Origin: a virus
Lineage: Duplodnaviria; Caudoviricetes
Length of the DNA: 35,742 bases
Strand: one strand, 5' to 3'
IMG/VR virus record: IMGVR_UViG_3300047282_000185
Span: 1-35,742 of that record
Positions 1 through 35,742 of this stretch are shown here, one piece after another (within the stretch, counting starts at the first letter, position 1; every line of letters begins with the position of its first letter). A program made the translations under genes and the position numbers. Under the pieces are notes generated by a model. The model was not told the DNA's origin and made no database searches. It saw only the letters and a program-made list of their open reading frames with translations.

Positions 1-139
1 GGGCCATCGGGCCAGGGGCGCGGGGCATGTTGCGCGGGGCAAAACGGGCAGGGAGCGGAGCGGGCCCTTTATCCCCATAACCGCAAAGAAAAACCCGACG
101 CTACGTAAGCCAATACGTATGCATACTTTTGTGGGGGGT

Positions 140-347
140 CATGTGGACCAGTGGACCATGCATTTTCAGTTGGCGCCAGAATGCGCGGGCATGGACAATT
201 TCCGGCCATTCTCTATATATTTATATATTTTTCTATAGCATTTAAAGAATGATAGTCCACATGGTCCACAAGTCCGCGAACCCGCATGGATACTAGCTTT
301 GCGGTGGACACTGTCATGGTCCACGCATGGTCCACGCATGGTCCACA
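140..347. repeat. Putative replication origin: inverted iteron arrays around an AT-rich core
   Basis: GTGGACC at 143 and 151; AT-rich tract ~211-252; (G)GTCCAC at 255 and 263; three tandem 11-bp CATGGTCCAC(G/A) at 315, 326, 337. Two more GTGGACC copies at 35717 and 35726. Confidence 0.65.
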
Positions 348-386
348 CTAGCCAGGGCACTAGGGTAAACGCCTAGAAAAAAGCTA

Positions 387-415
387 TTGACAGCTGTCAG
401 ACAATCCCTTACGAT
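387..415 (+). promoter_or_regulatory. sigma70-type early promoter
   Basis: TTGACA (387-392), 17-bp spacer, TACGAT (410-415), 35 bp upstream of the ATG at 450; AGGA SD at 437-440. A perfect palindrome TGACAGCTGTCA (388-399) overlaps the -35. Confidence 0.8.
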
Positions 416-449
416 TCATCCGTCGTAACACTCCATAGGACACTACAGT

Positions 450-1205
450 ATGAACAAATTTCTCGGATTCATTGCTTATGAAGGCCCGTCCGCTATTGAC
501 GGCGCGCCCATTGTCGTTATCGTGAACAAGATTGACGACGGCTCGGACAATGCGAAAACGGGCGCAATTGTTCAATCATTCATCATCCGGTCCGACGTGG
601 CGCCGGTGGAAGCACTGCAAACCGGCGCGGACGAGTCCATATGCGGACAATGCGAACATCGTCCGCTACTGGCCAGGGAAACCGGGAAAGCGCCGTGCTA
701 TGTGCAAGTTGGCAAATCCGTGCAGTCCGTGTACCACGCCCACAAACGTGGCCGCTATACCCGCGCCGACACGGCCACGATTGCGCGCGCATTGGCGGGC
801 AAAATTGTCCGGCTCGGAACTTACGGGGATCCGGCCGCAGCGCCCGTCACAATGTGGGCTCAAATCACCCGCTACGCGGCGGGCCGTCGGGGCTATACGC
901 ATCAGTGGGACCGTCCGGATTTTGACGTGGCCGCATGGAGCCCGCTTGTCATGGCCAGCGCGGACACTATCGAACAAGCGGCGCGCGCGAATTTGCTAGG
1001 CATGCGGGTTTTCCGCGTGTCCGTCGGGGTTGACCGCCAGCCCGGCGAAACCGTATGTCCGGCCAGTGCCGAAGGGGGCCGCAAGTCTACATGCGCCAAA
1101 TGCGTGCTTTGTTCGGGTACGTCAATTCAGGCGCGCGATATCGTTATCGCGGACCATGCCGCTGGCCATAAGCGCCGCGTTATCGCAATTGGAGCCGCAG
1201 CATGA
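450..1205 (+). CDS. Cys-rich GP88/DUF7227-like early protein (possible Fe-S / radical-SAM-like fold)
   Basis: 251 aa; motifs NAKTG, CGQC...PCYV, VRLGTYGDP, GYTHQW, MASAD, CPAS...TCAKCVLC...H resemble phage GP88/DUF7227-type proteins (recognised from memory). Confidence 0.65.
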   Translation: MNKFLGFIAYEGPSAIDGAPIVVIVNKIDDGSDNAKTGAIVQSFIIRSDVAPVEALQTGADESICGQCEHRPLLARETGKAPCYVQVGKSVQSVYHAHKRGRYTRADTATIARALAGKIVRLGTYGDPAAAPVTMWAQITRYAAGRRGYTHQWDRPDFDVAAWSPLVMASADTIEQAARANLLGMRVFRVSVGVDRQPGETVCPASAEGGRKSTCAKCVLCSGTSIQARDIVIADHAAGHKRRVIAIGAAA

Positions 1206-1528
1206 AAACAATGATTGCAAAATATCCTGGCCGGTGCATCCGTACCGGCGCCAGCATCCGTCCGGGTGACTCCATTATCTGGCACGGGCGCGGGCGCGCC
1301 GAGCTGGCCGACGGGCCCACAATCCCGGCCGAGCTGGCCGCAGTGGCCGAACTTGATCCAGAGCTGGCCGCGTCGGATCCGGATGCGGCGCTGGCCGCTG
1401 GCCGTTATATGGCCCGGTCCCTGGCCCGGGGCGTGTCCGATATCTGGCGCGCCGATGGCCGCGAATATTACCGCAACAAGCGCGGCCGCTGTGAAGATGC
1501 ACCGTGCTGCGGATGCTGTAACGCGTGA
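1202..1528 (+). CDS. Hypothetical protein with C-terminal CEDAPCCGCC metal-binding motif
   Basis: 108 aa; ATGA overlap with the upstream gene; N-terminal AKYPGRC...IRPGD; C-terminal GRCEDAPCCGCC. Confidence 0.75.
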   Translation: MKTMIAKYPGRCIRTGASIRPGDSIIWHGRGRAELADGPTIPAELAAVAELDPELAASDPDAALAAGRYMARSLARGVSDIWRADGREYYRNKRGRCEDAPCCGCCNA

Positions 1529-1567
1529 TTTTCAGGAATAGGGGCCGTTCCCCTATTCCGGACAATC
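1527..1567 (+). promoter_or_regulatory. Intergenic RNA hairpin (RNase III-type processing site or stabiliser)
   Basis: GATTTTCAGGAATAGGGG-CCGTT-CCCCTATTCCGGACAATC: 18-bp stem with 2 mismatches, no U-tract. Confidence 0.5.
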
Positions 1568-1589
1568 CGGTCCGACAATGGAGTGCACT

Positions 1590-1727
1590 ATGGGAAAAAT
1601 TGTCATTATTCAACTATTCGGGCGCCCGACGCGGTGCCGGATCCTGGCCCGGCATGGCCGTTACACGATGGACGTCGAGCGACTATCTGACGGCCAGTGT
1701 TTCCGCGTATCCGGACTAGGGGGCTAA
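1590..1727 (+). CDS. Small hypothetical early protein (45 aa, MGKIVIIQLFGRPTRCRIL...)
   Basis: Translated by hand; GGAG SD at 1580-1583; fills the operon gap. Confidence 0.6.
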   Translation: MGKIVIIQLFGRPTRCRILARHGRYTMDVERLSDGQCFRVSGLGG

Positions 1728-1729
1728 CC

Positions 1730-1819
1730 ATGCACATCCGCGATTCTTGGAGTGCCCTTATCGTCGCGGCCATTCTGGCCGTGCCTTTTGTGATCTACTT
1801 CTGGAGCATGAAACCATGA
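1730..1819 (+). CDS. 29-aa single-TM microprotein (MHIRDSWSALIVAAILAVPFVIYFWSMKP)
   Basis: Translated by hand; starts 2 nt after the upstream stop; ATGA overlap with the next gene; one hydrophobic helix. Confidence 0.6.
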   Translation: MHIRDSWSALIVAAILAVPFVIYFWSMKP

Positions 1820-2223
1820 AAAACGTAACCATTGGCCGGACCCGGTACACGGTCCTTGATTCTCGCGACGTTTTCGCGTCGCATGCCCTAGCCACGGGCA
1901 AACATAAGCGCCAGAAGTCCAAAGGCGCGGAAAAGCGACAATTCCCGGTGTTTAACCCGGACATGTCCACGGCGGAATACGTCCGCCAATACTTCGCGTT
2001 GAACACGTCACGCAAAATTGCAGCCTTCGATCCCTTGCACACTTTGCAATTCGAGCCCTTGCGGACGGAACCCTGCCACGCGGCGCAGGGGGAAGAATCC
2101 TATTCTGAAGTATGCCCGGCATGCGGAAGCGAAGAATTCACGCCTCAGTTTGCGTTAGTAACGGGCATTGAGACTACCTATCAATCCTGCGACGAGTGCG
2201 GGCACCAGTGGGGGCACGAATGA
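1816..2223 (+). CDS. Hypothetical protein with C-terminal zinc ribbon
   Basis: ATG at 1816 with GGAG SD; CPACG...CDECGHQW zinc-ribbon pattern. Confidence 0.7.
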   Translation: MKNVTIGRTRYTVLDSRDVFASHALATGKHKRQKSKGAEKRQFPVFNPDMSTAEYVRQYFALNTSRKIAAFDPLHTLQFEPLRTEPCHAAQGEESYSEVCPACGSEEFTPQFALVTGIETTYQSCDECGHQWGHE

Positions 2224-2435: not shown

Positions 2436-2686
2436 TCTACGCTACCCTCGCCCTCCTGCTCCGGGTTATACTCGGGCGCCATCGCTAGTTTTTGCCCCTT
2501 CGGGGGCTTTTTCTTTTTGAAGCGCTGGCGCATCCAGAATGTCAGGGGCACCCCTGGGCGGTACCCTAAGCGCCAAAGGTGCCAGTAAGCGGCCAGGGCC
2601 TCGCGCACGCCAGCGGTCATTTGGCCCTCGCCCACAATGCGCGCGAGTTCGGCCTCGGCCTTGGTTAAAACTACGCCATGTTTCAC
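2426..2686 (-). CDS. Hypothetical protein, last gene of the leftward replication operon
   Basis: GTGA overlap with the primase stop; N-terminal half looks helical (AEAELARIVGEGQMTAGVREAL); C-terminus runs through the convergent terminator. Confidence 0.45.
   Translation of the reverse strand: MKHGVVLTKAEAELARIVGEGQMTAGVREALAAYWHLWRLGYRPGVPLTFWMRQRFKKKKPPKGQKLAMAPEYNPEQEGEGSVDQT
2432..2488 (+). CDS. Possible 18-aa hydrophobic micropeptide (MIYATLALLLRVILGRHR)
   Basis: TTG start overlapping the upstream stop; GGAGG SD at 2420-2424; ends just before the terminator. Confidence 0.3.
   Translation: MIYATLALLLRVILGRHR
2494..2518 (+). terminator. Rho-independent terminator of the early operon
   Basis: GCCCC-TTCG-GGGGC followed by TTTTTCTTTTT (cUUCGg tetraloop). 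Confidence 0.85.
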
Positions 2687-8654: not shown

Positions 8655-8676
8655 AAGTTTTTTAGTGTGTTAAATT
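8647..8676 (+). promoter_or_regulatory. Overlapping divergent sigma70 promoter for the rightward operon
   Basis: TTGTGC-18bp-TAAATT with TGn extension; predicted +1 at about 8683-8684. Confidence 0.55.
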
Positions 8677-8683
8677 GTGGGGC

Positions 8684-8959
8684 ATGAAAGAAGCCGAGAT
8701 CGAAAAACACTTCGACTGGACAGTGCAGCGCATGGGCGGCAAGACCTATAAGTTCACCTCGCCCAACCAGCGTGGAGTTGCGGATCGTATCGCATGCATG
8801 CCCGACGGCACAACATGGTTTGTCGAACTCAAGACCAAGGGCGGGCGGCTGTCGGAATTGCAGAAGATTTTCCAATCGGATATGGCGCGCCTGAAACAGA
8901 AGTACGCATGCCTGTGGACAAAAGAACAAGTAGACGGGTGGGCGCGTGAAACTGCGTGA
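8684..8959 (+). CDS. VRR-NUC domain nuclease
   Basis: E..IE...GG..YKF.SP..RGVADR....FVELKT.GG.LS.LQ pattern. Confidence 0.9.
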   Translation: MKEAEIEKHFDWTVQRMGGKTYKFTSPNQRGVADRIACMPDGTTWFVELKTKGGRLSELQKIFQSDMARLKQKYACLWTKEQVDGWARETA

Positions 8960-10268
8960 GTATCAAGAGACAGCCGCCGACTTCCTGTACGAGCACGACA
9001 GGGCGATGATCCTCGCGCCAGTGGGCGCGGGCAAAACGGCCATTACGCTCACGGCTATGAAGGCGATGCTGGATGACGGCGTTGTCAAGCGCTGGCTTGT
9101 GCTCGCCCCTAAGCGCGTCTGCACGGATGTCTGGCCTATAGAGGCGAAAAAATGGGCCTCCGATTTGCAGTTGGCCGTCGCCGTGGGCACGCCAGCCCAG
9201 CGCAAGGCGGCGCTCTGCGCCCAGGTTGTCGTGATCAACTACGACAACATCCAATGGTTGGCCGAGCAGGCGCTGGACTTTGACGGCGTGGTGTTCGACG
9301 AACTGACGCGCCTGAAGAACCCCTCTGGCGCGCGTTTTAAGGCGCTGGCCAAGGTGCTGGACTGCCCGATCCGCTGGGGGCTCACAGGCTCGTTTACCAG
9401 CAACGGCCTGGAGGACGTCTTCGGCCAGTGCAAGATCGTCGATGAAAAGCTCCTGGGCCGCTCCAAGGGCGCATTCATGCAGCAGTATTTTGTTTTGCTC
9501 AACCGCGAATTTGGCGACTGGGCACCGCGCCCGGGGTCGCTGACCAGGGTCATGGAAAAAATCAAGCCCGCCACGTTCGTGCTGGAGCCGGGCGAGTACA
9601 AGGACAAGTTGCCGCCGCTGCATGTGGTCGAGGTGCGCTGCGACATGGACCTGACCAAGTACGACGAGATGAAAAAGAACTTCGTCGTCGAGTTCCCCGA
9701 CGCCCGCGCTATAGCGGTCAACGCAGGCGTTGTAACAGGAAAGTTGCAACAGATGGCGTCGGGGTTTGTTTACGAGACAAATAGTTCCCCCTCCATCACG
9801 CCCGGTAAGTTCATTGTGACACAAAAAGCGGCGTGGTTTAGCACCCACAAATTTGACCGCCTTGACGAACTGCTTGATGAGAACCAACATGCCAACACTC
9901 TCATTGCGTACACATATCAGGAAGAACTGGCGCAGCTTCGCCAGCGCTATCCGAAAGCTCAGACGCTGGATGATGACCGCGCCGTGGAACGATGGAACGC
10001 GGGGCAAATCGAGCTGCTACTGGTGCATCCGAAATCAGCCGGGCACGGGCTTAACTTGCAGTTTGGAGGATCGAAAATCGTTTTCCTGTCCTTGCCTTGG
10101 TCGCTGGAACTGTACGAGCAGACCCTCGGACGTTTGCATCGATCCGGGCAGCGCCACGACGTCTGGTGCTACGTCATGCTCACCAACAAAACGGTAGACG
10201 AAAAGATTTGGGCGGCGCTACACGACAAGCGCGCGCTATCAGACATTGCAATGGAGGAACTCAAGTGA
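8946..10268 (+). CDS. SNF2-like (SF2) helicase
   Basis: LREYQ, GAGKT, VFDE, LTGS, SAGHGLNLQ, QTLGRLHRSGQ motifs. Confidence 0.93.
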   Translation: MKLREYQETAADFLYEHDRAMILAPVGAGKTAITLTAMKAMLDDGVVKRWLVLAPKRVCTDVWPIEAKKWASDLQLAVAVGTPAQRKAALCAQVVVINYDNIQWLAEQALDFDGVVFDELTRLKNPSGARFKALAKVLDCPIRWGLTGSFTSNGLEDVFGQCKIVDEKLLGRSKGAFMQQYFVLLNREFGDWAPRPGSLTRVMEKIKPATFVLEPGEYKDKLPPLHVVEVRCDMDLTKYDEMKKNFVVEFPDARAIAVNAGVVTGKLQQMASGFVYETNSSPSITPGKFIVTQKAAWFSTHKFDRLDELLDENQHANTLIAYTYQEELAQLRQRYPKAQTLDDDRAVERWNAGQIELLLVHPKSAGHGLNLQFGGSKIVFLSLPWSLELYEQTLGRLHRSGQRHDVWCYVMLTNKTVDEKIWAALHDKRALSDIAMEELK

Positions 10269-10426
10269 GACGTATTGATTTGTGGCGCGCCAAGATGAAA
10301 GCGGCCCAGGCTGAGATGAAGATTGTTGTGCGGCGGGCTAACTCGATAGCCAAGCGCCGCGCGGCGCTGGAGCGATTGATCGACGATATGGAGAAGAAAA
10401 TTGGCACTTTCCTGGCGAAAACTTAA
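10265..10426 (+). CDS. Small coiled-coil hypothetical protein (53 aa)
   Basis: GTGA overlap with the helicase stop; GGAGG SD; helical sequence RRIDLWRAKMKAAQAE... Confidence 0.55.
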   Translation: MRRIDLWRAKMKAAQAEMKIVVRRANSIAKRRAALERLIDDMEKKIGTFLAKT

Positions 10427-10592
10427 CGAGGTTCTTGCGGACTTGTCTGAAGAGCAGGTGCTGCGCCTGCTGGATGATGAGCGCATAACACACCGTCGTC
10501 TGACGGTATTGGAGCGGCTGCACCAGCGCTACACGACGCTGCGCGCCAGTCGAGAACGTATCGAACTACTAAAGGAAGCTAAACGACCATGA
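10401..10592 (+). CDS. Hypothetical protein (63 aa)
   Basis: TTG start with GGAG SD; helical protein (WRKLNEVL...RLHQRY); ATGA coupling to the next gene. Confidence 0.65.
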   Translation: MALSWRKLNEVLADLSEEQVLRLLDDERITHRRLTVLERLHQRYTTLRASRERIELLKEAKRP

Positions 10593-10759
10593 CCACGAAA
10601 CGATTCCCTCGCACTATGGAAGAAGCATTTGGCCCTTACGCTCGTGGCGGCATCTACGAGCACCCGACGCCGATGTCGCTGTCTGACAAGATCATCACTG
10701 GCGTTAGCGGCATCATTCTGTTTGGCCTGCTGCTGGCCATCCTGGGGGGTTGGCTGTGA
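10589..10759 (+). CDS. Small membrane protein (56 aa; PRTMEEAFGP + C-terminal TM)
   Basis: Translated by hand; ATGA/GTGA coupled at both ends. Confidence 0.65.
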   Translation: MTTKRFPRTMEEAFGPYARGGIYEHPTPMSLSDKIITGVSGIILFGLLLAILGGWL

Positions 10760-10956
10760 AAGACGTACAGACTGATTATAAAAGTTGGGTAGATAAATAC
10801 GGCGGCTACGCAAAGGATATGACCTTGCGGGATCACTTCGCTGCCAAGGCGTTGCAGGGAATCATCGCCACAAACTCTCACTTTGTAAAAGACGCGGAGG
10901 CTTTGGCGAGCAAGGCTTACGAGTTCGCCGACGCCATGCTGGAGGCGCGCAAATGA
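10756..10956 (+). CDS. Phage protein of the 'MTLRDxFAAKAMQG...ADAMLxAR' type
   Basis: Contains MTLRDHFAAKALQG...AYEFADAMLEARK, a motif I recognise from many phage small proteins. Confidence 0.75.
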   Translation: MKDVQTDYKSWVDKYGGYAKDMTLRDHFAAKALQGIIATNSHFVKDAEALASKAYEFADAMLEARK

Positions 10957-11123
10957 GCGGCCCATATTTTGAGACTTGGACGCACGAGAACCTCGTGAAG
11001 TTCGCCAAGGAGGCCTACGAAAAACTCCAGCGTCAGGAGGAGGAGCTTCAGCGCCTGCGCTGGCCGTTTCCGACTAAGCAAAACGCTAACTATCTGGACG
11101 ACGTTGGGGAGGCGCTGTTGTGA
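10953..11123 (+). CDS. Hypothetical protein (56 aa, MSGPYFETWTHENLVKFAKEAY...)
   Basis: Translated by hand; GGAGG SD; coupled at both ends. Confidence 0.65.
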   Translation: MSGPYFETWTHENLVKFAKEAYEKLQRQEEELQRLRWPFPTKQNANYLDDVGEALL

Positions 11124-11281
11124 CTGATCAAGAACTGATGCATCAGGCGCTGGAGGCGCTGGAATGGGCATCCGACATGATCCCTCAACAAAAGGAGCCA
11201 GTCTGCGATTGCCCGATCTGCAAGGCATCTGACGCTCTGCGAGATCGGCTGGCGCAGCCGCTGCGGGAGAAGAACGCATGA
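11120..11281 (+). CDS. Hypothetical protein with CxCxxC (53 aa)
   Basis: GTG start with GGAGG SD; QALEALE...CDCPIC; ATGA coupling downstream. Confidence 0.6.
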   Translation: MTDQELMHQALEALEWASDMIPQQKEPVCDCPICKASDALRDRLAQPLREKNA

Positions 11282-11457
11282 CCCTCGCCATCATTTTGTT
11301 CCTGTTAGCCACCTGCGTGGTGGCGCTGCTGGCTGTGCCCTTGACCATGCTGATTGCGCCGAACGACTGGCCTGACATATGGGTGAATATCAAGCTCTGG
11401 TCTGTCGTCGCGGCTGTGTGGGCGGCGGTCTGGTTCGCGGTGGGCTATGGGCAGTAA
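11278..11457 (+). CDS. Two-TM membrane protein (59 aa)
   Basis: Translated by hand: MTLAIILFLLATCVVALLAVPLTMLIA...WSVVAAVWAAVWFAVGYGQ. Confidence 0.6.
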   Translation: MTLAIILFLLATCVVALLAVPLTMLIAPNDWPDIWVNIKLWSVVAAVWAAVWFAVGYGQ

Positions 11458-11677
11458 CGTACGGATCAACCAAACACGGGAACTATTGCGTCAAAACCCG
11501 GATGGTCTAACCGCCAAGCAGATTGACGAGGCAATTAACTACAACAACTTGCCGCACGTCTACAGGATACTCAAGAGCATGCCCGACGCCTACATTGACC
11601 GCTGGCAACGCACTGGCAAGCGCCTAAGTGCCGTCTGGTGTGTCGTCGTCCCACCACCTAACTGCCCGAAACCCTAA
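11447..11677 (+). CDS. Putative winged-helix DNA-binding protein (76 aa)
   Basis: RELLRQNPDGLTAKQI...VYRILKSMPDAYIDRW fits an HTH/wing pattern. Confidence 0.6.
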   Translation: MGSNVRINQTRELLRQNPDGLTAKQIDEAINYNNLPHVYRILKSMPDAYIDRWQRTGKRLSAVWCVVVPPPNCPKP

Positions 11678-11710
11678 AAAGAAAGGGCTGCGCGCAAACA
11701 CAGCCCTTTC
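11676..11710 (-). terminator. Rho-independent terminator for - strand transcription
   Basis: Perfect 10-bp inverted repeat GAAAGGGCTG / CAGCCCTTTC (11681-11710) with an A5 tract at 11676-11680 (U-tract on -). Confidence 0.75.
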
Positions 11711-11760
11711 AACTTCTCATCGGGAAGTCCCAACAACAAGTGTCGTAACGTCTCTAGTAT

Positions 11761-11970
11761 ATGAAAACCAAATGCAAATGCCCGCCAGGAAGCCCATTTC
11801 ACTGGCGTCAAGACTCAAGACCCTCCATCTTTGTCAAAGACAACGCCGCGTTACTATCCATGCGCCAGACCGAGGTTGTTGAATCAGCCCGCCGTCAGGG
11901 CCGCGACATCGGCCACATCCCCGGCGTCACCGCTAAGGTGCGCTACTTCCACTTTTTCTCAAAAGCATGA
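11761..11970 (+). CDS. Hypothetical protein (69 aa)
   Basis: ORF track; ATGA coupling to the next gene; no clear SD. Confidence 0.5.
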   Translation: MKTKCKCPPGSPFHWRQDSRPSIFVKDNAALLSMRQTEVVESARRQGRDIGHIPGVTAKVRYFHFFSKA

Positions 11971-12143
11971 TTGACTACGCCTACCCCTGCATGATGGCCG
12001 AGAAGGCTCTCAAAGACCTGCACAATGCGGCCATTGAAGGGCGGCTGGAGGACGCCAAGGAGCACGCCCTGGTGGCGCTGGCCGAGGTGCGCCTGACGTA
12101 TCAGTCCCTGGTGGCTATGTCAGAGCGTCAAGCGCGTGATTGA
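11967..12143 (+). CDS. Hypothetical protein (58 aa, MIDYAYPCMMAEKALKDLH...)
   Basis: Translated by hand; helical; 3' end overlaps the convergent endolysin by 29 bp. Confidence 0.65.
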   Translation: MIDYAYPCMMAEKALKDLHNAAIEGRLEDAKEHALVALAEVRLTYQSLVAMSERQARD

Positions 12144-28460: not shown

Positions 28461-29543
28461 TCAACCGCAGTAAAGAACGGCAGGGACGCAGTACGACCCA
28501 TCGGCATATTCATGCGTTTTGATTGTGCAAGTGACTTTGCCAATCGTGCTGGAGCGCATGATGTCGTCGGCCTGAACGCGGGCGGTTCCATCACCATTGG
28601 ACTCCAACAGGTCGCCTTCCTGCACCACCACCGCGCCGTTCACCCGGCAAACAAACGCGCCGACAGAGGTGACCAACATATCGTTCGTGGCAATCCAATC
28701 CTCATCCCAGCACATGAACACGCCGTAGACTTTTTTGCTGCTAGCAGCATCGCTGACTTTCACGCGGCACAGGCGCTCGGTTGTAGGCTCATCGGGCCAC
28801 TGACACAGTTCATCAATAGATTCCATGACTGTGCCACGAAGAATCTCTGGCTTGCTCCCGTCAGAGAGTTGTGACCAGTGCGAACCTGCAAATGCGTTGT
28901 AGGAGACGGTTTCGCCCGATACCGAAATGGTTCCTTTTTCTGAGCCGCCTCTTTGAAAAGAAACTAAGTTGCCGTCGCTCGTTAGGCGGTTGACCCGCAA
29001 AGATGAGTTGCCATCAGTCGTCAGGTTTAGCTGCTTTACAGAAGCGTCATAGTTGAAGCCCGCAGTACCAAAATCGGTGGTTGTTTTCGCCACCAGCAGA
29101 TTCCCGCTGGTAAAACGAGCACGCTCAATGTTGTTTTCAATAAAGGCAACTACATTGTTCGTGATTGACCCAATGTTTACGCTGTTTGCTCCAGCATACG
29201 AAGTGTCCGAGCCTCCGTTGTGCCGGAACATCGAAGCCTCTCCGCCAGCGTTGTAGACGATCATCCCCGACGCATACGACGCATTGTTGTTACGCAAATA
29301 GACCTGAGCGGTGGTGGTGTCGTTGACAGTGACATCCAGCTTGCGTTGCGGCGAACTCGTCCCGATGCCCACATCACCACCGCTGGTTGCCCTCAGCCTC
29401 TCACTGCCACCCGTAGCAATCGCCACAGTGTCCGCAGCGGGATAAAAGACACCCGTATTCGTGTCCGTTCCTTGGACGGCGGGTGTGGTTGCCGAGCCGT
29501 CAACCCCAGCAATACCAGTTGTGCCGTTGATCGTGATAGGCAT
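28461..29543 (-). CDS. Tail fibre with C-terminal intramolecular-chaperone-like (peptidase G2-like) domain
   Basis: GDVGIGTSSP beta repeats, ERARFTSG; C-terminal HWSQL...VKVSD...GDLLESNGDG...TIGKV...LYCG. Confidence 0.75.
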   Translation of the reverse strand: MPITINGTTGIAGVDGSATTPAVQGTDTNTGVFYPAADTVAIATGGSERLRATSGGDVGIGTSSPQRKLDVTVNDTTTAQVYLRNNNASYASGMIVYNAGGEASMFRHNGGSDTSYAGANSVNIGSITNNVVAFIENNIERARFTSGNLLVAKTTTDFGTAGFNYDASVKQLNLTTDGNSSLRVNRLTSDGNLVSFQRGGSEKGTISVSGETVSYNAFAGSHWSQLSDGSKPEILRGTVMESIDELCQWPDEPTTERLCRVKVSDAASSKKVYGVFMCWDEDWIATNDMLVTSVGAFVCRVNGAVVVQEGDLLESNGDGTARVQADDIMRSSTIGKVTCTIKTHEYADGSYCVPAVLYCG

Positions 29544-29553
29544 ATCTACTCCT

Positions 29554-31824
29554 CTACACTACTGTCCACACTGCGCCAGAGCTAACAGTCACCGTGATGC
29601 CGCTGTTAACTGTTACCGGCCCTGCGCTCAGGCCGTTGTCAGTCGCAGCAATCGTGTAGTTTTCAGCAATCGTCTGACTGTTAACGTGGATGCCGTTGCT
29701 GGAGCGATGCACAGTCGAACTCAACTCGCCAGTGCTAGGCTTGTAGAGCAACTTGGCATTGCCCGTATAGATCGTCGTGAGCGAACCCGACGTAGCCGCA
29801 GCAAAGAGCGGGTATAGATTGCTAGTCGTTGAAGTGTCGTTCGAGGCCGTGACGCCTGCCGTTGCCCAGGAGGTATTCGTGCCGTCTGTCGTCAGGTACT
29901 TGCCCGAGTTGCCAGTCTGACTGGGCGCAAGTGCATTAAATGCAGCATTCGCAGTAGTTTGACCCGTACCGCCGTTGGCAATCGGCAGCGTGCCCGTCAC
30001 CTGGGTCGAGAGGCTCACCCCAGAGAGCGTGCCGCCTAGCGTCAAGTTGCCCGATGAGGTGACAGTGCCCGTAAGCGTGATGCCGTTGACTGTGCCCGTA
30101 CCGCCGACGCTCGTGACAGTGCCCACATACTGATCATTAGAGGTGATCGTAAAGTTGGGGTAGGTGCCTGTGACGCTCGTCGTGCCAGCGCCCGTCAGCG
30201 ACACCGTCTGATCGGGGGCTGTGTTGGTGACAGTAACTGTGTTAGTTCCTGAAACCGAAATCCCCGTGCCAGCGGTTATTGTGCGAACACCATTGTTGGT
30301 GATGGTGATGTCGTTGGTGCCAGTAACCGAAATGCCGTCGCCCGCCTGGGCAGTTCGCACACCGCTGTTGGTGATCGTGATCGACCCCGCACCCTCGGTG
30401 ATGCTGATGCCGTTACCATCGGTCAGCGTGTGTTTTTCCCACAGGCTGGTCGATTCGTTATAGATCAGCACCTGCCCGTTTGTCGCATTCTGAGCCGACA
30501 CGTTGTGCAGCTCATCCATCTCGTAGCCGTTTTGGATGCGAACTTCAATCGAACCCTGGTTAACGTGGCTGCGAGTGACCACCCCGACATACACAAGATG
30601 ATTCGGGGCGTACTGCTTGGTGGAGGTGTATGTCCCCGCCGTGGTGGAACTCAGATAAAGCTGCGTGCCGTTAGCAAAAGCAGAAGTGTCCAGGCCAGAG
30701 ATATCGCCCGCCAAAATGGCATAGCCGTTGTTATTGTTGGCGATATCGGCAAAGATCAGGCCAAACGTCTGAGCCGAGGTTGCATCACTTGTTGCAATCG
30801 CTTTGGAGACTGTGGCCTTGTTGCCAGAAGCCCCGCTGATGTAGACCACCGTGCCTTTGGACAGCGTAGCCCCAGTCTCGTTGCGAACCTGAGCAATCAG
30901 GCGCGGGGATGAATAGACCGCCAGATCAACCGCCGGGCCAGTGGTCGTGACTGTGACGCTGCTGTCAGCCGAGGCAATCGTTTGGATAACGTCCGACTGG
31001 TCAATCTTTTGCCAGACTGTGCCGTTGAACATCAGCCAGTCGCCAACTTGCCAGTCGGTGATGCCGTCTAGGTTCGTGCTGCCAGCCGTGGCAACGATGT
31101 AGTAGTAGCCGTTCGTCCCAACGCCAGAGGCCAGCGTCGGGGTGTTCGTGCTAGCGTTCCAGGTACCCTGGTAGGACAGGCCACCGGCTACCGCCGCCCA
31201 TGACAGCACCGAGCCGTTGGTCGTGAGGAACTTACCCGCATTGCCCGTCTGGCTGGGGATGAGGTTGTCAATCTGGGTTTGAAGACTCGCAAGAGTATCA
31301 AGCACCGTCTGGCTCGTACCACCGCCATTGGTGATCACCTTGATCTTCTCAGCCAGGTCAGGGGCTACCACCTCGCCCACGTTGATCTCGCGCCCGGTGG
31401 ATAGCGAGATGATCAGCGAGCCGTCAAAGTCAATGCGCGCATCAGTGACCGAGACGCCATCTTCACCATCGCGGCCATCCACGCCATCACGGCCTGCAGG
31501 ACCACGCGGCCCCATTGCCCCATCACGGCCCGCACGCCCATCCTTGCCGGGCCTGCCATCCACACCATCGCGCCCGTCCTGGCCATCCTTGATGGAGGCC
31601 ACCCGCGCTTCGATCTTGTTGCCGACCTCGTCGTAGCGGGACTTGATGTCCGCTTCAATGCGTTTAAGGGCTTCAATGACCAGACGGGCCTGCTCACCCA
31701 CGCGCTGCTTTTGCAACTCGCGGGCTTGGCCCATCGTGGTCTTAATCGACTGAAGAACAGCCTTTTGCTGCTCCTCGGTCATTCCCTTGAGGATTAGCTG
31801 CTTGGCAAGGCTTTCAACGTCCAT
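29554..31824 (-). CDS. Long fibre protein with coiled coil, collagen-like repeats and Thr/Gly-rich shaft
   Basis: About 14 Gly-X-Y triplets (GQDGRDGVDGRP...), YQGTWNASTNTP, repeated GISVTG units, GTLPIANGGTG, C-terminal SAGPVTVNSG..WTVV. Confidence 0.8.
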   Translation of the reverse strand: MDVESLAKQLILKGMTEEQQKAVLQSIKTTMGQARELQKQRVGEQARLVIEALKRIEADIKSRYDEVGNKIEARVASIKDGQDGRDGVDGRPGKDGRAGRDGAMGPRGPAGRDGVDGRDGEDGVSVTDARIDFDGSLIISLSTGREINVGEVVAPDLAEKIKVITNGGGTSQTVLDTLASLQTQIDNLIPSQTGNAGKFLTTNGSVLSWAAVAGGLSYQGTWNASTNTPTLASGVGTNGYYYIVATAGSTNLDGITDWQVGDWLMFNGTVWQKIDQSDVIQTIASADSSVTVTTTGPAVDLAVYSSPRLIAQVRNETGATLSKGTVVYISGASGNKATVSKAIATSDATSAQTFGLIFADIANNNNGYAILAGDISGLDTSAFANGTQLYLSSTTAGTYTSTKQYAPNHLVYVGVVTRSHVNQGSIEVRIQNGYEMDELHNVSAQNATNGQVLIYNESTSLWEKHTLTDGNGISITEGAGSITITNSGVRTAQAGDGISVTGTNDITITNNGVRTITAGTGISVSGTNTVTVTNTAPDQTVSLTGAGTTSVTGTYPNFTITSNDQYVGTVTSVGGTGTVNGITLTGTVTSSGNLTLGGTLSGVSLSTQVTGTLPIANGGTGQTTANAAFNALAPSQTGNSGKYLTTDGTNTSWATAGVTASNDTSTTSNLYPLFAAATSGSLTTIYTGNAKLLYKPSTGELSSTVHRSSNGIHVNSQTIAENYTIAATDNGLSAGPVTVNSGITVTVSSGAVWTVV

Positions 31825-33837: not shown

Positions 33838-35097
33838 TCACACTCCGCTAATGACATCAAGCGGTTGCCAGTCATCCTGATCTTCTTCCTCGAAGTAGGA
33901 TGTGACCGCTAACTGGTCTATATATGATAGGGCATCCGGCAGGTCGTCATGGACGCCTTGCGCCGGAAACATGAGAAGCTGATCCGTGAAGTCGTCCCAC
34001 TCCTCATCCTGATTGAGCACGATTCTCCCATGCTCAAAGCGGCCCTGCAAGGCCCAAATGATGCGGTCTGCCTTCTTTCGGTTGCCATGCGTCAGGTCCA
34101 CGATGTGGGCGTAGACGTTGTTCTTTCGCATGAGGTCCGACAAGTAGGGCAAAACCGCGTTTTTGAGCGATCCGCGCTCAATCCCTACGCTTAAGGGCCG
34201 GTAATCCCGAATCTTGATCAGAATCTTGGCGGCGGTTTCTCTCACATCCCATCTTCCGTGCTCAATCTCCTTGACGAACCACTTTCCCTCGTCCGTTACC
34301 TTCACCACCGCGATGGCCGACTCGTCCAGGCGCTTCTTGGCGTTGGCCGCTTGCTTGGCCACCTCCTCAAAACCCGCCAAATCCACCGCGATGAACCAAC
34401 TTCCATGCTGTGGCTCCTCGCCATAACGGATCCACTCCTCCTTGAAGATGTCCGAACCAGCATTTGAGAAGCTGGCAAGGTATTCCTGCTTGAAAGCGAA
34501 GCTGGAAAGCGTCTTTTTCGCCGACTCAATCTCGCTCGGATCGATCAGCGGGTTGTCTTTTGTCGTAAAGTGCCAGCTTTTCCAGTCCTTATCACTCTCT
34601 TGCTGGCCTAATTGCCATAAATCGTAGAACCAATTCCTACCTTTTGGCGTGCCGATGAACATGGCGCGCCCTTTTCGGTCACTTAAACTGGCCCGGATCA
34701 CCTGCTCCCAGGCTTCTGGCTTGATGTCAGCCACCTCGTCGAGCACCGCGTAGGTCAGGCTCACGCCGCGCAGCGTGTCCGGGCGGTCGGCACCTCGCAC
34801 ATAGATGCGCGCGCCGTTGATCATCGTGATGTCCAGATTGTTCACATGACTGCCCGAGATCACTTCGCGCCCCAACTCCAGCAGCAGGTCCCAGATGATC
34901 TGGCGCGACTGGCCCATCGTCGGTGAGACGTACAGCACCGCCGATCCGGGCGGGCACTTCAGGGCCTCAATGATCAGCGTCGTTGCCGCTAGTCGGCTTT
35001 TGCCACACCGCCGTCCGGCGGCGATCACTTTGAATCTCGTGGAATCGGCGTATACGGATTGCTGCCAGGGCAGAAGCTGGAAATTTAGGTCAGACAT
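33838..35097 (-). CDS. terL: Terminase large subunit
   Basis: Walker A AGRRCGKS, LRG, Walker B VLDE, GTPKG, nuclease VDLA...DES...HDDLPDA. Confidence 0.95.
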   Translation of the reverse strand: MSDLNFQLLPWQQSVYADSTRFKVIAAGRRCGKSRLAATTLIIEALKCPPGSAVLYVSPTMGQSRQIIWDLLLELGREVISGSHVNNLDITMINGARIYVRGADRPDTLRGVSLTYAVLDEVADIKPEAWEQVIRASLSDRKGRAMFIGTPKGRNWFYDLWQLGQQESDKDWKSWHFTTKDNPLIDPSEIESAKKTLSSFAFKQEYLASFSNAGSDIFKEEWIRYGEEPQHGSWFIAVDLAGFEEVAKQAANAKKRLDESAIAVVKVTDEGKWFVKEIEHGRWDVRETAAKILIKIRDYRPLSVGIERGSLKNAVLPYLSDLMRKNNVYAHIVDLTHGNRKKADRIIWALQGRFEHGRIVLNQDEEWDDFTDQLLMFPAQGVHDDLPDALSYIDQLAVTSYFEEEDQDDWQPLDVISGV

Positions 35098-35266
35098 AGA
35101 CCATCTCCGTCGGCGCGATCAGGATCGCATCGGCGTTCGGGTTCCAAACCTCAAAGCGCGCCTGTAACTCAAGGATTAACGCTGGCAGCTTTTCGGTTGT
35201 CGTCAGGTACTGCTCTTTGACAAGGTGATCCGCTTTGGTGAAGGTAACCAGCCAGTTCTTAGACAT
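35090..35266 (-). CDS. Hypothetical protein between terS and terL (58 aa, MSKNWLVTFTK...)
   Basis: Translated by hand; 8-nt overlaps with both neighbours; AAGGA SD. Confidence 0.55.
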   Translation of the reverse strand: MSKNWLVTFTKADHLVKEQYLTTTEKLPALILELQARFEVWNPNADAILIAPTEMVYV

Positions 35267-35546
35267 CCGTTATATCCTTCGCTTCTATGATCGTGGGCGC
35301 TTCGCCGATCCCGGTTATATTGATCGTGACGGCGCTGCGCGCGCCTTTCTCGCGGTCAAACAAGCTGGTGGGTAGCGTTCGGTCCATGCACATCTTCAGC
35401 GCCGCCATCTGGCCTGGATGCGTGTCGTCCATCGCAATGTCGAGCACCTTCTGCACTACGTTCTTGCCGCCAGACTTCAACAGATGCTCCTTCAACTCCT
35501 TCAGGCGCATCGTCTCCGTCTTGGGCAACGTCTTGGGCAAGTTCAC
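35259..35546 (-). CDS. Putative terminase small subunit
   Basis: 95 aa; AMDDTHPGQMAALKMCMDRTLP followed by a beta strand VTINITG; AGGAG SD; first late gene. Confidence 0.65.
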   Translation of the reverse strand: MNLPKTLPKTETMRLKELKEHLLKSGGKNVVQKVLDIAMDDTHPGQMAALKMCMDRTLPTSLFDREKGARSAVTINITGIGEAPTIIEAKDITDV

Positions 35547-35712
35547 TTTTTCTCCTGTAGGGAAAGCGGTGCCTTGATTCTAGGCCGAATCCCTTTTTAT
35601 GTGGGGCGGAGGCACCGTCAAATTTACACAGCCAGCCAGACCCCTCCCCCCCTATCAATAAGCCAAAGTCCATAGGCTCGGGCTATTGCTTCGCGCGGCA
35701 GGCGGCCATCGG

Positions 35713-35732
35713 CCATGTGGACCATGTGGACC
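35713..35732 (+). repeat. Tandem CCATGTGGA repeat, same iteron as at 140-347
   Basis: CCATGTGGA x2 (35713-35730), containing GTGGACC at 35717 and 35726. Confidence 0.7.
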
Positions 35733-35742
35733 GGGCTGGCGG

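Follow-up and report, generated by a model that had tools for sequence, protein, structure and literature searches.

The leading segment of the lake phage genome described here is poor in asymmetric restriction-type words yet tolerant of palindromes; in both respects the remainder of the genome shows the reverse. The term window is used for the whole stretch of DNA that was analysed (35,742 nucleotides), and lead for the segment at positions 1–2142 and its counterpart in related phages. We demonstrate for the lead a distinct composition, defined edges, a match to known asymmetric motifs and recurrence in relatives. It is probable, at roughly 70%, that the lead has been shaped by selection from asymmetric-site defences (Type I, IIG, III or BREX-like) acting on first-entering DNA, through many specificities and not through one host motif. 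The concept of a site-free leading region is itself already known, from T5 and Murciavirus.

Genome organization

The record is a whole 35.7-kb phage genome, classed as linear and 100% complete; no end overlap is found within the window. The right side carries, on the minus strand, podovirus-like tail genes, capsid, portal and terminase, and a replication module (primase, PolA, exonuclease and helicase) is also present. The large terminase (phrog_2) lies at 33838–35097 and a putative small terminase, assigned by position and with no family hit, at 35259–35546; both are on the minus strand, the latter divergent from the early operon. A conserved C-tract, ACCCCTCCCCCCC, follows at 35640–35652 (plus strand) and is a candidate packaging or terminus signal. 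Positions 35653–35742 are the start of a variable, repeat-rich spacer that runs on into position 1, a junction spanned by the related loci L001–L004. Within the lead, GTGGACCA and CATGGTCCAC repeats, which may be origin- or packaging-like, surround an AT-rich tract (137–347).

The early operon is short and rightward (450–2435). It is preceded by a sigma-70-like promoter match, TTGACA-17-TACGAT (387–415, plus strand; a consensus match only), and at its end stands an intrinsic-terminator-like hairpin with a T-run (2494–2517, plus strand). All of its genes are on the plus strand. Gene 1 (450–1205) encodes a 251-residue protein of phrog_2554, a putative distant GP88/DUF7227 relative and candidate anti-defence protein. 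It is followed by genes for a 108-residue protein of phrog_5664 (1202–1528) and a 45-residue protein with homologs in relatives (1590–1727), both with no assigned function, a 29-residue hydrophobic product (1730–1819), a 135-residue protein with a Zn-ribbon-like C-terminus (1816–2223), across whose 3′ part the depletion weakens, and a 71-residue protein with no assigned function (2220–2435). One contig (run X3) skips window positions 1820–2219 and so lacks the Zn-ribbon gene, and X7 lacks 35091–35261, pointing to variable accessory genes.

The public runs that match best are freshwater and marine metagenomes; parts of the window occur in 20 runs, in each case as contigs. No cultured relative exceeded 60% in terminase, capsid or primase, a host search of genome contigs returned three short MAG contigs, and no N6/N4 methyltransferase (PF01555) was found in the genome.

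The CCTC/GAGG and ACCT/AGGT gap

An earlier note on this sequence had drawn attention to two words. Its statement that CCTC and GAGG are missing before 2143 is correct: CCTC first occurs at 2143 and GAGG at 2421. The long gap that it reported for ACCT and AGGT is also real, with a minor error in its end, placed at 2226; ACCT first occurs at 2176 and AGGT at 2577. Had 1–2142 the word frequencies seen elsewhere in the genome, it would contain 15.3 CCTC/GAGG and 12.0 ACCT/AGGT. The last CCTC of the window, at 35643, lies within the conserved C-tract.

When 1–2142 was randomised 1000 times, the expectations for CCTC/GAGG and ACCT/AGGT were 21.8 and 15.7 in mononucleotide shuffles, 10.6 and 7.7 in dinucleotide shuffles, where a zero count was never reached in 1000 for either pair, and 4.3 (p = 0.005) and 3.7 (p = 0.020) in trinucleotide shuffles. 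A codon test covered the early genes up to 2223, in which CCTC and ACCT are each observed once. For CCTC, 9.4 are expected from genome codon usage and 6.2 from the genes' own usage (p = 0.007); for ACCT the values are 5.0 (p = 0.027) and 3.8 (p = 0.063). The depletion thus outlasts the shuffles that the earlier note had proposed as a check. The note had also named equally long motif-free stretches elsewhere as evidence against its claim. The next-longest gaps of the two word pairs are only 959 bp (CCTC/GAGG) and 885 bp (ACCT/AGGT), but a CGCG-free stretch of 2139 bp lies at 28763–30902, in tail-fibre/collagen genes of a genome that contains 331 CGCG. In 4-let shuffles of the whole genome, an equally extreme gap arose for one of the 136 words in 3 of 40. 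As a single-word statistic the gap is therefore of borderline significance.

In relatives CCTC depletion is family-wide (lead/rest 0.29), while that of ACCT is much weaker (0.60), and ACCT is found in gene 1 of most relatives. The suggestion that the two words are the recognition cores of a single host system is not supported, since dozens of words are depleted and the loss of ACCT is largely a property of this genome. CCTC and ACCT are mere extremes of a broader filter, and the robust signal is a broad loss of AG/CT.

A broad AG/CT loss shared with relatives

AG/CT stands at 0.58 of expectation in 1–2142 and at 0.94 elsewhere, with recovery spread over a few kb; the best-scoring stretch is 57–1988. 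The depletion affects both strands and, as had been claimed, coding and non-coding DNA alike. A rightward block at 8675–12143, with a VRR-NUC endonuclease, a helicase and about nine small genes, has an ordinary composition; neither rightward orientation nor small gene size therefore accounts for the signature.

Related loci were fetched through gene 1 (66) and through the terminase (80). With the C-tract upstream of the small terminase as anchor, 82 loci could be placed. A right flank of 1.5 kb or more was available in 65 of them, and removal of near-duplicates left 45, of which 18 carry the gene-1 family and 27 do not. In relatives both AG/CT and GA/TC drop right at the C-tract and remain depressed over some 2.5 kb, so the broad loss recurs. 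The pooled values in the lead are 0.64 for AG/CT and 0.74 for GA/TC, against 0.90 and 0.93; in loci without gene 1 the effect is weaker (0.89 and 0.88, against 1.02 and 1.01). The lead/rest ratio in the family is 0.73 for AG and 0.81 for GA. The 4-mers most depleted in the family are AAGA, CCTC, GAAG, AGGA and GGAG, and those most enriched are TATA, CCGG, ATAA, ATAT, CGCG and CATG.

Coding DNA is nearly symmetric between strands (AG 0.54, CT 0.60), and permutation of the genes' own codons leaves the depletion in place (CT 0.83, AG 0.85). Before the first open reading frame the values are already low (CCTC 0.08, GAGG 0.23). An artefact of protein composition was considered as a cause and rejected. 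Among ten whole genomes, the minimum of asymmetric motifs and the maximum of 6-bp palindromes both fall on the lead block in six; the signature is weak in one of the other four (G008) and hardly present in three (G007, G009 and G010).

Asymmetric motifs are avoided and palindromes tolerated

A REBASE-derived list of 617 sites, taken from Biopython, was compared with the lead. The median observed/expected ratio of the 386 contiguous asymmetric motifs is 0.58 in the lead and 0.95 in the rest, and that of the 49 bipartite motifs 0.52 and 0.85; the 182 palindromic motifs behave in the opposite way, with 0.94 in the lead and 0.65 in the rest. The unweighted summed ratio of the contiguous asymmetric motifs is 0.98, because a few degenerate motifs dominate the sum. 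The median log2 value is −0.65 for the real motifs; six sets of motifs with shuffled letters gave −0.22 to −0.38, about half the effect.

Motif load, the frequency with which a word occurs inside asymmetric motifs, correlates with 4-mer depletion in the lead (rho −0.53; shuffled motifs −0.31 ± 0.05) and hardly in the rest of the genome (−0.04). With dinucleotides removed, rho is −0.31/−0.27, and −0.08/+0.02 in controls. GAAG, GGAG, GAGG, CGAG and AGGA, the words commonest inside asymmetric motifs, are among the most depleted. The correlation persists with gene 1 excluded (−0.55 versus −0.14 to −0.26) and in nine loci with other GP88/DUF7227 genes (−0.49 versus −0.13 to −0.18), and is faint in 18 loci without such genes (−0.15 versus −0.05 to −0.12). 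In the window taken alone, real and shuffled motifs are inseparable (−0.43 versus −0.08 to −0.79; dinucleotide-free −0.05, −0.10).

Locus by locus, asymmetric motifs are rarer in the lead than on the terminase side in 16 of 16 gene-1 loci (two of the 18 were dropped for a short flank), in all nine loci with other GP88/DUF7227 genes and in 15 of the 18 remaining loci. Palindromes are more frequent in the lead in 16/16, 9/9 and 14/18, respectively. The loci share kinship, so that p-values are overstated. Given motif load, the 6-bp palindrome term is +0.14 log2 in the lead, which is neutral, and −1.39 in the rest. In the rest of this genome palindromic 6-mers stand at about 0.2–0.55 of expectation and asymmetric sites are not avoided. 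What had been an aside in the earlier note, that palindromes are not avoided in the first 2.1 kb, has proved to be half of the signal. Two palindromes, GAGCTC and CCGCGG, are nearly missing even from the family leads, where most are tolerated.

A single defence or modification system that reads a short AG/GA core (for example CCTC/GAG-type or phosphorothioate-linked) on first-entering DNA could give a similar picture, with the REBASE match incidental. Most of the signal is indeed carried by AG/CT and GA/TC, and CCTC is depleted in the family beyond its sub-words (72 versus 124). However, no short word is absent family-wide, words free of AG (CATC, CCGC, CACC and CAAC) are depleted too, and the motif-load correlation outlasts the removal of dinucleotides; we regard one system of this kind as improbable, if the best of the alternatives to selection by many specificities.

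Edges of the depleted zone

Edges were located by a leave-one-out Markov scan of 22 loci. The depleted zone starts between −132 and +255 bp from the C-tract in 20 of the 20 loci with sufficient left flank; in the window its left edge is not position 1, as had been supposed, but the C-tract, which lies some 100 bp short of the right end of the window. It ends 2.1–4.1 kb on from the C-tract, no more than 250 bp from the 3′ end of the primase in 12 of 16 loci, and in relatives it mostly ends together with the early operon.

Of six near-complete contigs classed as ‘linear’, four begin no more than about 500 bp from the C-tract, at differing bases, an arrangement that repeats could also produce; these openings are a hint of a terminus. 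Contig depth is flat or strain-mixed, and the metagenomic contigs yielded no molecule ends. The C-tract stands upstream of either of two unrelated terminase/portal modules, one with a 419-residue terL and the other with a 508-residue terL and a P22-like portal (window 35640–35652; L036, L006, L009, L017 and L027). To its right, the spacer of L001–L004 contains arrays of GTGAGTGCTCACTAAC-like and CTGGTCAGTC repeats. L069 and L090 have TTATCCACAG repeats, which we take to be DnaA-box-like, and spacer length differs by several hundred bp.

That the zone follows the operon and has no fixed length, that its gene content is hypervariable and that signature strength tracks the presence of a GP88-type gene would all suit an early operon exchanged horizontally as a module with the composition of another gene pool. 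Against this, the zone takes in the untranscribed spacer, and it begins at the C-tract whichever of the two unrelated terminase modules adjoins it. The signature is moreover seen with four different first-gene families, it is absent around eight distant gene-1 homologs in other phages (L057–L062, L064 and L066), so that the protein sequence is not its cause, and the loss of AG/GA is common to T5. Exchange is accordingly a poor explanation, with a small chance of being correct.

Slighter still is the chance of selection at the RNA level on a strongly expressed early transcript, through codon adaptation and avoidance of Shine-Dalgarno-like words (AGGA, GGAG and GAGG) and pyrimidine-rich Rho sites. 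Codon adaptation is described for plasmid leading regions in the cited parts of PMC13478746. Codon use in the lead is strongly shifted, with GAA, CAA and AAA preferred. The codons nevertheless also move towards TTT, TAT, CAT and AAT, which is away from the usual optimal codons. Both strands are alike, the depletion survives codon permutation, the lead shows no extra mRNA folding, and depletion is present upstream of the promoter (CCTC observed/expected 0.18 in nine loci), so this cause is already largely excluded. Equally slight is the chance that the cause is physical or mutational, namely a need to avoid UV dimers, the bending of DNA that is packaged last, or a local bias towards transversions close to an origin. 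Such causes would suit the purine and pyrimidine runs among the most depleted 4-mers and a surface-water habitat, but AA/TT, the strongest UV-dimer site, is unchanged, codons of the form NAG give way to NAA, no enrichment of gapped inverted repeats was seen, and the palindrome contrast is left unexplained.

Comparison with cultured phages

The first-step-transfer (FST) DNA of T5 (L165, 1–10219), of which 30 of the 122 kb were examined, has AG at 0.72 and GA at 0.79 of the values in the 20 kb that follow; the change comes as a step at 10 kb, where injection stops. Its 4-mer profile correlates with that of the family leads (0.41; null −0.07 to 0.17), and the dinucleotide-free (partial) correlation is inside the control range. 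A literature search found no published account of this AG/GA loss. As in the window, the first block of T5/BF23 (Tequintavirus) adjoins the terminase, is AG/GA-depleted and has a sharp edge. The T5 FST is longer, with 10 kb compared with 2–4 kb in the window phage and its relatives, and T5 enters in two steps, whereas the window phage is known from contigs only. Restriction–modification of Types I and II acts in T5-likes only on sites in FST DNA, as stated in the cited passages of PMC10644984, and the same passages describe T5 as sensitive to palindromic sites within the FST. The T5 model therefore does not predict palindrome tolerance. T5 shows no palindrome contrast, while in the window phage palindromes are avoided outside the lead only; as a host-target-depleted block the lead resembles the FST for asymmetric motifs and not for palindromic ones. 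No A1, A2 or dmp was detected among the window's early proteins with PHROG, Pfam and NCBIfam.

Homologs of gene 1 matched 152 cultured-phage records. Most of the homologs listed lie a few kb or less from a record end (cluster A and M mycobacteriophages, Gordonia phages and roseophages); those of Microcystis and most of the Klebsiella entries lie away from the ends. In S2B (Autographiviridae), the homolog is 1.2 kb from an annotated terminal repeat and upstream of the RNA polymerase, and its lead shows the family trend (asymmetric motifs 0.89–1.0 versus about 1.2; palindromes 0.91 versus about 0.45). Weak versions of the signature are present in T7, Che12 and KatherineG. The nearest cultured capsid relatives, A-4L and Pf-WMP3 (27–32%), have a layout in common with the window, terminal repeats of 810 and 234 bp, and little or weak signature. 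The segment that runs from the C-tract to about where the early operon ends is likely to be the first DNA to enter the cell. The idea that it enters first and is purged of asymmetric targets thus draws its support from indirect evidence: the REBASE asymmetric match, the AG/GA loss of T5 and the position of gene-1 homologs near ends.

For Murciavirus faced with Mme2I, only early-injected Type I sites matter, according to the passages cited (PMC12455610), and T3 SAMase and Ocr serve as the anti-restriction reference in those of PMC8594841. The early regions of Autographiviridae (T7 0.3 Ocr, T3 SAMase, Murciavirus) have in common with the window short repeats and a small early operon with a candidate restriction–modification inhibitor as first gene, together with an end and a host promoter, of which the window has candidates. 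The T7-type layout is represented in the window by the consensus matches to a promoter at 387–415 and an operon terminator at 2494–2517; a scan of 49 window proteins found no phage single-subunit RNA polymerase. The Autographiviridae reports concern single motifs, whereas the window family is depleted over a broad motif space.

The survey of Rusinov 2018 found, genome-wide and in the passages cited, no avoidance of Type I or IIG sites and only rarely of Type III (PMC6286503). Here the avoidance of asymmetric sites is restricted to 6% of the genome, and the palindrome avoidance of the rest is alike. Plasmid leading regions likewise have a distinct composition in first-entering DNA and carry anti-defence genes (cf. 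the ArdC-N of L135), but they enter as ssDNA and show codon adaptation, with systematic target depletion absent. Within its incomplete coverage, the literature search found no report of the broad AG/GA signature, the palindrome mirror image, a link to gene 1 or a function for DUF7227.

Gene 1 and the early slot

Gene 1 scores 19.1 bits against DUF7227, below the Pfam cut-off of 27, and DUF7227/GP88 is carried by 11–33% of the members of its Atlas neighbours. Its invariant cysteines are C65-x2-C68-x14-C83-Y and a C-terminal Cys cluster; the CX3CX2C motif is absent. The predicted model, a confident one (pLDDT 87.8), has QueE as its best VIA match, a weak one (Z 5.3, rmsd 5.3, 163 aligned), and the top ten VIA rows are all radical SAM or related enzymes. 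Foldseek gave no match at E ≤ 0.001, a PDB sequence search gave 0 hits, and neither a family match (Pfam/PHROG) nor a fold match to Ocr or SAM lyase was found. With GP88 (PF17338), DUF7227 (PF23872) and QueE-like small radical SAM enzymes, the model may share a Cys-rich partial barrel; the sub-cut-off Pfam score and the missing CX3CX2C set it apart. The protein is thus, weakly, a distant GP88/DUF7227 relative with a faint predicted likeness to the radical-SAM fold.

In nine related loci the early slot is held by true GP88 or DUF7227 members. Four distantly related GP88/DUF7227-type families occur in this slot (L113, L072, L095, L121, L143, L138, L144, L106 and L079). Other occupants are a beta-clamp-like protein (L131), an ArdC N-terminal domain, encoded within the L135 lead, and a SprT-like protein (L001).

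Type IIG and BREX systems are SAM-dependent. Type I and III enzymes also require SAM and orthodox Type II enzymes do not, as stated in the cited passages of PMC6286503, which would fit a SAM-consuming early enzyme guarding against the very class whose sites the body of the genome does not avoid. A role for gene 1 as an inhibitor of host defences that targets SAM is a tentative suggestion, with the odds against it.

Proposed explanation

Under selection from asymmetric-site defences on first-entering DNA, the C-tract would be the virion end, and host RNA polymerase would transcribe the early operon from the promoter at 387–415 before the remaining DNA is exposed. An early product, most likely that of gene 1, may then inhibit SAM-dependent systems, which would free the remaining genome from having to lose their sites. 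Type II enzymes of the orthodox, palindromic kind would stay uninhibited, for which reason the rest of the genome would avoid palindromes. Successive loss of each current host's motif may erode the cores that these have in common: AG and GA, and GAAG, GGAG, GAGG, AGGA and AAGA. The weakest step is the palindrome neutrality of the lead: the lead may have a further copy at a terminus, or selection on asymmetric sites may be stronger than that exerted by Type IIP enzymes.

These observations indicate that avoidance of Type I/IIG sites, missed by whole-genome surveys, can be strong yet restricted, throughout an uncultured phage group, to a segment of a few kb. The signature, compared with T5, offers a sequence-only marker for first-entering DNA, and the widespread, uncharacterised GP88/DUF7227-like family (with the 152 cultured-phage records) is nominated as an anti-restriction candidate. 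More speculatively, and doubtful as it stands, uncultured, abundant freshwater podophages may split the labour of anti-restriction: a lead purged of all of asymmetric motif space would express an Fe-S enzyme of the GP88/DUF7227 type, which would remove SAM by destruction or sequestration and thereby blind Type I, IIG, III and BREX together, while the body of the genome would escape palindromic Type II enzymes by site loss. If such a division of labour is true, an AG/GA-low, palindrome-high signature would show, with no data other than sequence, which DNA enters first and where genome ends and anti-defence genes lie.
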